Positions 30,001 to 33,000 of a DNA stretch of 64,000 nt are shown piece after piece. Source of the DNA: Candidatus Collierbacteria bacterium (GTDB taxonomy: Bacteria > Patescibacteriota > Microgenomatia > UBA1400 > JACPES01); NCBI GenBank assembly GCA_016183365.1, contig JACPES010000003.1, forward strand, positions 409,154 through 473,153, given 5' to 3'. Position numbers: made by a program. Each line of letters opens with the position of its first letter. The stretch's first letter is position 1.

Positions 30001-33000
30001 GGATGTTTAGACAGGTTGACGGCCCAGAAAATGGGAATCGCGCTTTTAGACGGGAATAATCCGATTCAATTAACTGAATTTGTTAATTATTTGCAAAAAG
30101 CCGGCGGCTACACAGAAACTTCTTATTTTCCAATTTTGCCGCCATATCCGGTTTTTAATCAACAGCCCCAGCCGAATGCGGAATTGCTTGAATTGACTGC
30201 CACAAGATTTGTGATCTCGTCGTACGAATTGACGGATAGAAATTTTGAGTTAAAGGATCAGTATGGAGAATACAGATTATATCTTAACACCGTTAAACTA
30301 ATGGAAACAAAGGATCACTATTTTAATTTATAATTAATTATGAATTATGTAGATTGACTATGCTATAGCATATTAAATCTACATGAATAGTTTAAATAAA
30401 TTTTGAGGATGAAAATTGTTTTTATTTCTAGATATCAGGGAAAAGCAGAGAGGGGGGTAGAAAATTATGCTGATGGGCTGGCGTGGCGGCTGGGGCGAAA
30501 ATATCAGGTGAAGATTTTAACTTCGTTTTGGCAATTGTTTAGTAAACAAACAGTTGCTTTTCAAAAAAGGCCCGGCCTTAAAATAATTTATCCGCTAAAC
30601 GGTTATTGGCAATCACTTGGTTGCCGGATTTACACTTGGTTAACCGGCGCCAAACTGGTTTTGGGCGGACATGCCGGAACCGGCCGCGATGACCGGTGGA
30701 ATTTATTTATGTTTCCGGATCTATTTATTGCTTTTTCGGGAAAAGGCTACAATTGGGCTAAACAAGTAAATCCGTTTATCAAAATTGTCAAAATCCCTCA
30801 CGGAGTGAATTTAGAAAAGTTTAATCCTGATGTTAAGCCGACAGATCTTGATTTAGAAAGGCCTAGATTTGTGACGGCAGCTAATTTGGTTCCTTATAAG
30901 CGGGTCGAGAAGACGATTAAAGCTGTGGCCCGGCTTAAGAAAGGCAGTTTATTGATTTTAGGCGATGGTCCATTGGAAAAAAAAATTGATGAATTGGGGA
31001 ATAAATTATTGGGGCCACACAGATATTTGCGGTTGAAAGTTCCGCACGATCAAATGACTAAGTATTTAAACGCCTGCGATGTATTTACTTTAGTTTCGGA
31101 AGAATCAGAGGCCTTTGGGTTGGTTTATCTTGAAGCCTTGGCGTGTAATTTGACTGTGGTAGCCACTGATGACTCTTTACGGCGGGAATTGATCGGAGAT
31201 GCCGGATTATTTATAAAAAATCCGGAAGATAGTCAGGGATACGCGAGAGCTTTAGAAGTAGCGGCGAATACTGATTGGGGAGATAAACCGGTGAAGCGGG
31301 CGAAAAAGTTTGATTGGGAAAAAACTGCCGGCAAATATTTAGAGGAGTTTGGAGGAATTTGTGGGAAGATAGCGCAATGAAAAGCATCTCTATAGTAATT
31401 CCGGTTTATAACGAGGAGAAAGTTATCTGCAGGTGTTTGAAGTCGCTGTCACAACAGACGCTTCAGGCTAAGGAAATTATCGTGGTTGATGACGGGTCAG
31501 CCGATAAAACTCTTCAGGTTTTATCTAATTTTCAATTTTTCCCGCAAAGCAGGATCCCGCTTCGCCCTGTACCAGACGGTACGGGGCTTCGCGGTACAAT
31601 TTTCAATTTTCAATTATTACAGCAAAAGCATTGTGGAGCAGGGGCGGCAAGAAATTTGGGGGCGGGAAAAGCGACGGGGGATATTTTGGTTTTCGTGGAC
31701 GCGGATATGAGGTTTCACCCGAAGTTTTTGGAAGAATTGACGGAGACGATTCATGAAGGCAAGTCCAAAGGCACATTTTCTAAACTCGAATATATTGCTA
31801 ATTGGAACAATCGTTGGGCCAGATTCTGGAATTATGACAAAGGTATTTATGAACCGCGGGCAATTCCGGTGGATTACCCCAAAACCGCACCGGTATTCCG
31901 GGCGATATTAAAATCTGAATTTGACAGGGCCGGCGGATTTGACGAGAATAAAGGCTATAACGACGATTGGAGTTTGAGCGAAAAACTTGGGATTAAAGCC
32001 ACCGAGGCCAAAGCCAAATTTTTTCACTATAATCCGCAAAATCTGGCCGAGGTTTTTATCCAAGCTCGTTGGGCTGGGAAAAGAAAATATAAATTGGGGA
32101 TTTTGGGAGCTTTAGCCAGAGAATTTCCGTTGTGGGCGTCTATGATCGGGATAATCAGGGTAATCAGGAGAAAGAGAGAAATCGGGGAGTCTTTATTAAG
32201 TTTGTTAACATTATATCCGCTGTTTCTGCTTACAATTAAGACGGCATCCACAATTGGGATTATAGAGTTTATGTTTTGGGGAAAATCATCAAAATAATGA
32301 AGAATACTGTTAAATCATCGCTTGCAGATCGTTTTTGGCTGTTAATAATATTGTCCTTAAGTTTATGGATAAGGTTGGTCGGAATTAATCAGTCATTGTG
32401 GCTGGATGAGGCGATTGAGTGGTGGGCGGTAACAACTTTTAGCCTTAAACAATTGTTGTTCGGATATATGGGCGGAGATTTTAATCCACCCGGTCATCAT
32501 TTATTGCTATGGTTTTGGGTCAGGATATTCGGCGATTCGGAAATTGCCTTGCGTTTTCCTTCGGTTCTGTTCGGGATAGGCATCGTATACATAACTTATA
32601 AAATCGCTAAATTAATTTTGGGAAAACAAGATGGACTTATAGGCGTTTCCGGGTTCCCGCTCAAAATTTCCCATGTCAGCGCTATTTTTGCCGCTTTTTC
32701 CGGATTGCTGATTTACTATTCCCAGGAAGCCAGGATGTATTCGATGGCGACTTTTTTTACTGCCGGAGCTTTCTATTTTTTAATCAAGAATGAATCGGAC
32801 GGAAAAAAGTTTGGGATAAATTATCTTTTCTTCTCAGTATTTCTTACTATCGGACTGTATTCGCATTATTTAGTCTGGTTGTTATTGCCTTTGATGTTTA
32901 TTACCGGGAAAAAATATATTTTTCCGGCTTTTACCCTAATGCCTTGGTTGCCAATGCTTTTTAAACAAATAATTTCCGGTTTATCGGCGGCCGAAAATCC

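Follow-up and report, generated by a model that had tools for sequence, protein, structure and literature searches.

Inserts within heptanucleotide arrays of two glycosyltransferase genes

The DNA analyzed here is a stretch of 64,000 nucleotides from a Candidatus Collierbacteria bacterium, referred to as a whole as the window. It holds a dense cluster of glycan and cell wall synthesis genes (GT2, GT4, PMT_2, epimerases, Mur ligase, and MraZ). Open reading frame (ORF) analysis delimited a GT2 gene (31377-32297, plus strand) and a GT4 gene (43622-44749, plus strand), each containing an array of tandem heptanucleotides that is interrupted by an insert (site 1 and site 2, respectively). The GT2 product was 100% identical to P0001, listed by NCBI as [quoted passage not shown] and the GT4 product was 100% identical to P0121, an NCBI entry from the same taxon (Microgenomates, candidate phyla radiation [CPR]). 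An earlier note, made from the sequence alone, had described palindromic insertions flanked by identical heptamers and had proposed that mobile hairpins either target heptamer repeats or generate them as target-site duplications. The strings on which it relied are present at both sites, including cgatttacgatttac, which occurs at 43711-43725 and again at 43764-43778. The insert sizes given there (54 and 38 nt) were corrected by comparison with orthologs to 57 and 39 nt, both multiples of three (Table 1). We consider it likely that older in-frame arrays of four units were split by GC-rich inserts that entered between units without target duplication, and that a sequence-specific integration process acting in trans was responsible.

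Empty and occupied arrays contain the same number of units

Four comparisons of empty and occupied sites were made: the GT2 gene of the window with contigs L001 to L004; the GT4 genes of the window and of L167 with L169 and five other orthologs; the GT4 gene of L163 with that of L165; and the DNA ligase gene of L100 with P0242, P0244, and P0246. An alignment of 24 GT2 orthologs displayed a 19-column gap, corresponding to a 19-residue insertion in the window protein. The ortholog P0019 reads SNFQFSIFNFQLLQQ at the insertion point, and its DNA, represented by four independent contigs (L001 to L004), runs uninterrupted in the same codons as TCG AATTTTC AATTTTC AATTTTC AATTTTC AATT ACTG. In the window, TCT AATTTTC AATTTT is followed by the 57-nt insert and then by C AATTTTC AATTTTC AATT ATTA. 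Four units and AATT are present in both forms, the difference in length is exactly 57 nt, and the number of heptamers gained is zero. In a further pair of GT4 genes, L165 has AATTTTC AATTTTC AATTTCC AATTTTC and L163 has AATTTTC AATTTTC AATTTT, a 30-nt element, and C AATTTTC. The units are the same, the difference is 30 nt, and the junction has the AATTTT^C phase of site 1; read as an empty and an occupied state, this pair confirmed that the 30-nt element inserts alone.

At site 2, the orthologs P0123, P0126, P0128, P0129, P0131, and P0156 (66 to 82% identity) carry DLRFTIYDLR, with four unbroken units. The empty array of L169 and the occupied arrays of the window and L167 all contain four units, and they differ by 39 nt (Table 1). 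The earlier note had listed this insert as a second case of its mobile hairpins. It does not form a hairpin in the window (fold z = -0.16), and no second copy of its 21-nt core (43730-43750) was present there when up to 3 mismatches were allowed; it is a separate 39-nt element, outside the palindromic families, that behaves in the same way. The form found in L167 does fold (z = -3.0), and a small stem of the element shows a compensatory pair change, from GACGC/GCGCC to GATGC/GCATC in L167. The same 39-nt element is present, in another reading frame, in the (CGATTTA)4 array of an unrelated ATP-dependent DNA ligase gene (L100). Its orthologs P0242, P0244, and P0246 have an unbroken array (SRFTIYDLRFT), L100 has two units, 39 nt, and two units, and the difference is again 39 nt; more distant ligase orthologs lack the array. 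The 39-nt element was found only in CGATTTA arrays, in these two unrelated genes. Because orthologs of both genes have the array alone, the array is older than the insert in GT4 and ligase alike; in both genes the element entered after the second unit and before the third, 3′ of TTAC.

Unit counts were therefore equal in all four comparisons, with length differences of 57, 39, 30, and 39 nt and no extra unit at an occupied site. Since no heptamer was gained, there is no target-site duplication, and the empty sites refute the proposal that insertion generates the heptamers. An added 7 nt would also shift the frame; the ORFs are open, which argues against a 7-nt duplication. As shown by these alignments, the flanking heptamers are the halves of an older array. 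The insertion lengths (30, 39, and 27 nt) are always divisible by three, and the genes consequently stay open. The predicted peptides of the inserts are FPQSRIPLRPVPDGTGLRGT and CPQTLRAKCCRLA. An AF2 model of the GT2 protein, built on the ortholog alignment, had a GT-A fold with a mean pLDDT of 84; residues 55 to 74, which correspond to the site 1 insert, were the only segment with a pLDDT below 50, and the heptamer-encoded residues after the insert belonged to the next beta strand. The inserted peptide is thus predicted to be a disordered surface loop. Other GC-rich inserts were seen in the GT2 loop of further orthologs, e.g., P0058, P0008, P0014, and P0041. In the more distant ortholog P0058 (L005, ~10150-10210), this loop holds an (AATTTCC)n array that is broken by a different insertion of 18 nt with the mini-hairpin CCGCGAAGCGG, which we read from the sequence as another, independent GC-rich insert within a heptamer array.

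Table 1. Positions and properties of the arrays, inserts, and hairpin copies described in the text
Feature	Position	Strand	Properties
Site 1, left half-array	31527-31539	+	AATTTTC (unit 1) and AATTTT of unit 2, in frame
Site 1, insert	31540-31596	+	GC-rich; 57 nt = 19 codons; 30-nt twin hairpin plus nested 27 nt
GCTTCGC, left copy	31559-31565	+	Abuts H20; apex of second hairpin
H20 (CCTGTACCAGACGGTACGGG)	31566-31585	+	20-nt hairpin; three exact copies in window
GCTTCGC, right copy	31586-31592	+	Abuts H20
Site 1, right half-array	31597-31615	+	C of unit 2, AATTTTC units 3 and 4, AATT
Site 2, left half-array	43712-43725	+	(GATTTAC)2, in frame
Site 2, insert	43726-43764	+	39 nt = 13 codons, CPQTLRAKCCRLA; 1-nt boundary ambiguity; low copy
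Site 2, right half-array	43765-43780	+	(GATTTAC)2 and GA
GT4 array, L169 (empty)			(GATTTAC)4 GA
GT4 array, window (site 2)			(GATTTAC)2 + 39 nt + (GATTTAC)2 GA
GT4 array, L167 (P0124)			(GATTTAC)2 + diverged 39-nt insert + (GATTTAC)2 GA
Full family C copy	45741-45818	+	Outer stem GTGAAGTTT/AAACTTCAC, twin hairpin, H20 at 45778-45797 with GCTTCGC duplication; in frame in GT4-like ORF 44715-45914; z = -6.1
Full family C copy	22818-22895	-	H20 at 22839-22858; in frame in ORF 22017-23549 (-)
Canonical 30-nt copy without H20	27714-27743	+	In frame in ORF 27421-30333; peptide PAEQGPASRD
Copy with AT-rich outer stem	27358-27410	+	Gene boundary; twin hairpin at 27369; z = -5.6
Copy with outer stem as at 27358	36847-36899	+	Hairpin order opposite; twin hairpin at 36857; z = -5.1
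Copy upstream of GT4 start codon	43534-43561	+	Pattern and fold
Variant copy	21566-21595	+	Within GT2-like ORF 21254-22000

The 30-nt twin hairpin

The 30-nt element, which we call the twin hairpin, has the structure T-CCNGC-RRA-GCNGG-ATC-CNGC-TTC-GCNGG-A. It is a near-perfect palindrome with terminal inverted repeats and ends at T/CCNGC and GCNGG/A. A degenerate-pattern search showed that the element is widespread in metagenome contigs: the matches listed, on which our copy counts rest, comprised at least 126 distinct copies in at least 120 contigs. The few related sequences with an organism name came from Patescibacteria (CPR), and a scan of viral contigs gave no match to the twin hairpin. 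The element is exactly 30 nt long, preceded by T in 99% of the main subclass and followed by A in 94%. Within open frames of at least 390 nt lay 55 of 114 copies, compared to 193 of 342 random positions. The twin hairpin is not excluded from genes, and about half of the copies are in frame in ORFs; in the window, those at 27714, 31540, 45753, and 22880 lie within ORFs.

Two full copies of family C in the window have an extra outer stem, which results in a three-way junction. The fragment at 31541 that had been assigned to this family does contain a twin hairpin carrying a nested hairpin (fold z of the site 1 insert, -3.7); the outer stem of the full copies is absent from it.

A nested 20-nt hairpin flanked by short direct repeats

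In its three window copies, the nested hairpin, termed H20, sits inside the second hairpin of the twin hairpin. H20 consists of two inverted 8-nt arms. A family C element without H20 (L147) has a single GCTTCGC, and the H20-empty form CCCGCTTCGCGG occurred 67 times in the fetched loci. At least three host palindromes were found both empty and occupied, always with a length difference of 27 nt. Among GTDB genomes (one genome per species), H20 was present at 37 loci, in genomes labeled Daviesbacteria, Levybacteria, Shapirobacteria, WWE3, and Saccharibacteria as well as in several low-GC metagenome-assembled genomes (MAGs) labeled Gammaproteobacteria. A direct repeat of 5 to 7 nt abuts both ends in 19 of 39 copies, compared to 4.9% in shuffled flank pairings; the repeats comprise 11 distinct sequences, including GCTTCGC, GCTCCGC, GCAGGC, GCGAAGC, CTACGC, and GCGGAG. 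Judged from these comparisons, the genuine target duplication at site 1 belongs to H20 and not to the heptamers, and the predicted structures show H20 at the apex of GC-rich hairpins.

H20 was also observed without a duplication in conserved noncoding settings, e.g., ~25 nt 3′ of the 16S rRNA end in two Daviesbacteria and beside a terminator-like hairpin in three MAGs (loci without duplication: L014 at ~5030-5096, L028, L008/L019/L037, and L018/L027/L029). Such a noncoding setting may be the original, functional context of H20. When 8 H20 loci were searched against Rfam, the matches were limited to rRNA, tRNA, and one group II intron motif, and H20 itself was not covered; viral contigs scanned for H20 gave no match. 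The possibility that H20 duplications seed heptamer arrays was considered and rejected, as 1.15 Mb of sequence contained no tandem GCTTCGC footprints (GCTTCGCGCTTCGC or similar). L037 has a (CTGTACC)n array similar to an H20 arm, but this array is 3.9 kb away from the H20 copy and unrelated to it.

Twin hairpins are enriched in heptamer arrays

The flanks of the twin-hairpin copies from the metagenome contigs were tabulated. A 7-nt repeat with at most 1 mismatch abuts the element in 20 of 126 copies but in only 2 of 504 shifted controls; exact repeats abut 9 of 126 copies and none of the 504 controls. Repeat lengths of 4 to 6 and 8 to 10 nt showed no comparable excess. The baseline for repeats with at most 1 mismatch was 0.53% of all positions in the same loci and 0.80% of positions that follow TTG or TTT (binomial p, 4e-20). 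Array occupancy was therefore ~20-fold higher than at motif-matched positions. Within ORFs, 16 of 79 copies were in arrays versus a baseline of 0.47% (~40-fold), and outside ORFs the numbers were 4 of 46 versus 0.83% (~10-fold). Outside long ORFs, ~0.4 array copies were expected and 4 were seen (Poisson estimate, p ~6e-4). The majority of the 20 array-borne copies are in multiunit arrays, which have at least 10 different units (TATCTTG, ATAATTG, GGAAGTG, CAGTTTC, ATATTTG, and others). ORFs of 600 to 2,855 nt read through heptamer-flanked copies, and the majority of such copies lie in long open frames.

The flank consensus is T(0.70) T(0.78) K(0.81) T(0.99)-element-A(0.94) C A. With a palindromic element, ACA on the right is the mirror image of the left flank, and target and element are not fully separable in this consensus. 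The junction phase is TTK^, and in CAATTTT-type arrays 7 of 7 copies are at TTTT^CAAT or its complement, for which we calculated a probability of ~1e-5 if phases were random. Outside arrays, where 84% of the twin-hairpin copies are found, the TTK^ preference holds as well. The tenfold excess outside ORFs, small as the noncoding sample is, and the fixed phase point to a real site preference. Of the alternatives in the earlier note, targeting of heptamer arrays by hairpins is thus supported statistically, and the link that it drew between the two repeat classes is real.

Heptamer arrays in the window and in CPR loci

In the window, 25 exact tandem runs have a period of 7, whereas periods 5, 6, and 8 to 12 gave 0 to 3 runs each; the majority of the period-7 runs are within ORFs. 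Given this excess over other periods, the pattern is not due to chance. The same held for 1.1 Mb of fetched CPR loci together with the window (321 period-7 arrays, compared to 53 of period 6 and 119 of period 8). The lengths of the period-7 arrays have a mode at 30 to 35 nt (123 of 321), equivalent to ~4 to 5 units, and fall steeply above 36 nt. This distribution is not the simple decay expected of random slippage. Heptamer arrays, with a unit length that is not a multiple of three, lie within the GT2/GT4 ORFs starting at 31377, 35724, 37496, 42589, and 43622 and others, a feature shared with phase-variable contingency loci (simple-sequence repeats in surface-glycan genes). The units are AT-rich and diverse, in contrast to the GC-rich duplications of H20, and the copy number is constant at four units between species in the GT4 and ligase orthologs.

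Orthologs often share the position of an array and differ in its unit. In the GT2 loop (alignment columns ~55 to 95), we observed NFQFSIF (AATTTTC), KFEIRNLKFEI, QFSIQYSVFSI, and EFRIQNSEFRI at one position; in the N-terminal loop of GT4, DLRFTIYDLR, NFQFSISNFQ, and KFEIRNSKFEI; and arrays at one position in the DNA ligase loop likewise have different units. These alignments suggest either long-lived arrays in concerted evolution or repeated replacement.

Other features of the window

A small gene at 10450-10824 (minus strand), between two epimerase genes, encodes a 23S_rRNA_IVP/bAvd-like four-helix-bundle protein. It is flanked by inverted heptamer arrays, (TTGAGCG)n and (TTCAACG)n at 10403-10435 and 10836-10864, which resemble terminal inverted repeats; the left array codes for residues 2 to 12 of the adjoining epimerase. 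Long intergenic hairpins whose arms are inverted tandem arrays (units of 7, 9, or 14 nt) are located at 9012-9081, 16065-16161, 16696-16749, 17132-17262, 13699-13769, 34543-34619, and 56120-56183. They include repeat families, with those at 9012 and 16696 being 83% alike and those at 34543 and 56120 being 93% alike. A cloverleaf-like repeat family with three inner hairpins, TGTCATTCC...GGAATGACA, is apparently represented at 17727-17777, 28410-28466, 47653-47700, and 53912-53962, and a double-palindrome family, GGCCAGGCC, apparently at 27882-27917, 33896-33931, and 52557-52592, the last of which is preceded by a 10-nt tandem repeat. Some copies of these two families are within ORF 27421-30333.

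GC skew was positive in each 2-kb block, and the window is therefore on a single replichore; genes are mostly on the plus strand from 13.8 kb on. Rfam at gathering thresholds gave 0 matches and ARAGORN gave 0 tRNAs in the window, so the elements do not correspond to known RNA genes. Of six Logan contigs from sister samples, five end exactly at window position 44816, where no repeat was seen. Other Logan contig ends are at heptamer arrays (37656, 42759, and 42796) or at a family C element (45770). These ends may reflect strain variation or assembly breaks at repeats.

A model for the insertion of hairpin modules and its alternatives

We propose that a trans-acting enzyme probably integrates the hairpin modules sequence-specifically and without duplication, directly 3′ of TTK (TTAC for the 39-nt element), a behavior that would resemble single-strand HUH/Y1 transposition (IS200/IS605 and REP/RAYT). 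Tandem heptamers would present the motif anew in each unit and may tend to adopt single-stranded or slipped conformations. Arrays would be located in segments dispensable for protein function, so that inserts there could survive selection and in-frame copies could be kept. Copying between arrays of the same unit via homologous arms of ~14 nt may be a secondary route for the spread of inserts, one that would fit the 39-nt element especially.

Several observations weigh against this model. A Pfam scan of 20 window ORFs gave no transposase or other candidate enzyme. Within the population, the seven contigs that encode the identical GT4 protein showed no presence/absence polymorphism, six Logan contigs from sister samples being 100% identical to the window, and mobility is therefore deduced only from comparison between species. 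The termini of the twin hairpin lie directly at the hairpin feet, unlike the ends of IS200/IS605 elements. The nearest empty orthologs are 63 to 82% identical, and array copy number could have changed since insertion. P0121 shares more identity with two empty orthologs, P0156 (82%) and P0123 (74%), than with P0124 (72%), which is occupied; the 39-nt insert is thus not monophyletic by simple identity, and repeated gain or precise loss is needed. The excess in arrays within ORFs could be survivorship rather than targeting, and the excess outside ORFs comes from just 4 copies.

These points have to be considered together with the alternatives. That the flanking heptamers are target-site duplications, and that insertion, possibly with excision and reinsertion, makes and lengthens the arrays, was suggested by the identical 7-mers at the inserts, by the real duplication of 5 to 7 nt at the nested H20, and by an array-length mode close to the 30 nt of the element. 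We regard this explanation as scarcely tenable, because the unit count was unchanged and the insert alone made up the length difference in all four comparisons, and because 7 extra nucleotides (+37, +46, or +64 nt) would break ORFs that are open. Many insert-free orthologs have an intact array of the same unit, tandem GCTTCGC footprints amounted to 0 in 1.15 Mb, and the AT-rich, diverse array units do not match the GC-rich duplications of H20. The reverse route, by which empty arrays would arise through slippage deletion of the insert, would lose at least one unit, yet empty sites are the exact sum of the halves. A complete absence of a mechanistic link, with inserts landing anywhere and surviving only in dispensable segments such as arrays, is very doubtful. 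It would account for an excess that is strongest in ORFs (20% versus 0.47%) and weaker outside, for the disordered surface loop predicted for the inserted peptide, and for the other GC-rich inserts in the same loop of P0058, P0008, P0014, and P0041, and part of the excess in ORFs could indeed be survivorship, with arrays marking stretches in which ten additional codons are tolerated. At odds with a missing link are the excess that persists outside long ORFs (~10-fold), the junction phase fixed in 7 of 7 CAATTTT arrays, and the restriction of the 39-nt element to CGATTTA arrays.

It is also doubtful that array and insert move together or that recombination between arrays with identical units (arms of ~14 nt) is the sole means by which the insert spreads, with no site-specific integrase involved. 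The composite (CGATTTA)2 + 39 nt + (GATTTAC)2 + GAAT is present in GT4 and ligase genes in different frames, the insert follows the second of four units in each gene, all copies in CAATTTT arrays share a single phase, and the 39-nt insert is not monophyletic among the GT4 orthologs, all of which would agree with such a process. Array-only orthologs of both genes, however, put the array first, and the occurrence of at least 10 different array units, with 84% of the copies outside arrays, would call for de novo insertion each time; the TTK^ preference outside arrays also argues for integration at a preferred site. Unlikely, but conceivable, is a broader role of the arrays as part of the mobility system itself: their periodic or slipped structure would be recognized whatever the unit, inserts would spread by array-guided copying, and arrays, which at 30 to 35 nt match the 30-nt element in size, would themselves be products of the integration machinery, e.g., through reiterative gap filling after excision. 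CPR bacteria would then have a route for adding 9 to 19 codons to enzymes, and H20 (20 to 22 nt plus a duplication of 5 to 7 nt) would, to our knowledge, rank with the smallest DNA units for which a target duplication has been shown.

Significance

The elements constitute small, nonautonomous, palindromic mobile DNA with an unusual preference for in-gene heptamer microsatellites, together with a nested, duplicating 20-nt hairpin. If integration into older arrays is correct, CPR genomes carry layered tiny mobile palindromes (20, 30, and 39 nt) that are compatible with coding and favor heptamer microsatellites in genes for cell-surface glycan synthesis and DNA repair. This would be a testable case of simple-sequence repeats that serve as landing pads for mobile DNA, and it would show peptide insertions gained by conserved enzymes in reduced genomes and how far a transposable unit can shrink. 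Elements and arrays may also break short-read assemblies, and when proteins of uncultivated bacteria are aligned, they show up as lineage-specific "insertions."

Comparison with known systems

In full-text literature searches that combined CPR with heptanucleotide or palindromic elements, neither the elements nor the arrays were found to have been described for CPR bacteria. Miniature inverted-repeat transposable elements (MITEs) with target-site duplications include the Correia elements. H20 resembles MITEs in its inverted arms, its short direct duplication of variable sequence, and the single copy at empty sites. It differs in that its 20 to 22 nt are far below known sizes and in that it targets a hairpin apex (GCNNNGC) of another element, and we know of no parent insertion sequence for H20. 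Elements of the IS200/IS605 group are not known to make a target duplication, insert 3′ of a short motif (TTAC in the case of IS608), have hairpins at both ends with cleavage sites away from the hairpin feet, and are larger. The elements described here share the lack of a target duplication and the hairpins, and the 39-nt element lies 3′ of TTAC, in a single case; they are smaller, their termini are at the hairpin feet, and no TnpA gene was identified among the 20 window ORFs scanned. Rickettsia palindromic elements (RPEs), reportedly described by Ogata and colleagues in 2000, are said to be nonautonomous palindromes of ~100 to 150 bp that lie in frame in protein genes of Rickettsia only and are translated as surface peptides; we know of no obvious enzyme encoded by them. 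In-frame insertion into conserved protein genes as an extra peptide, indicated here by alignments, ORFs, and the disordered loop of the AF2 model, is a shared property. Unlike RPEs, our elements have 30, 39, and 20 (+7) nt, are nested, occur in CPR, and are concentrated in heptamer arrays.

Insertion of repetitive extragenic palindromes (REPs) is not known to leave a target duplication. REPs and the doublets termed REPINs are short, GC-rich, imperfect palindromes, highly repeated, arranged as hairpin doublets, and mobilized by the Y1 HUH protein RAYT (PMC3116915); a passage in PMC3733652 describes REPs as extragenic, with a GTAG or CGTC head. The twin hairpin is likewise a hairpin doublet that inserts without duplication. 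Two defining features of REPs are not shared, as ORFs hold about half of the copies and the element begins with T-CCNGC in place of a GTAG or CGTC tetranucleotide. No RAYT gene was found among the 20 window ORFs scanned against Pfam, to which the search was confined. The modules of cyanobacterial small dispersed repeats (SDRs), studied by Elhai et al. in 2008, reportedly measure ~21 to 27 nt. According to a passage in PMC4390886, SDR4 to SDR6 insert into HIP1 at a precise point, between its third and fourth bases. Both systems consist of tiny, nested modules that enter other short repeats at exact positions. They differ in host phylum and in sequence; the elements described here target a heptamer junction or hairpin apex and not HIP1, and they commonly insert into coding sequence. 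An excess of heptanucleotide simple-sequence repeats in some prokaryotes, with polymerase slippage as the proposed cause, is credited to Mrazek et al. (2007) in a passage of PMC4679880. The same passage presents heptanucleotide arrays, including TAACTGA, as the most abundant repeat class in Beggiatoaceae and cyanobacteria, with two to six units and some of them within ORFs. The arrays of the window fit this known excess. Unlike the TAACTGA and related arrays, they involve many different units, lie mostly in frame in conserved enzymes, occupy the same loop with different units, and are landing sites for hairpins.

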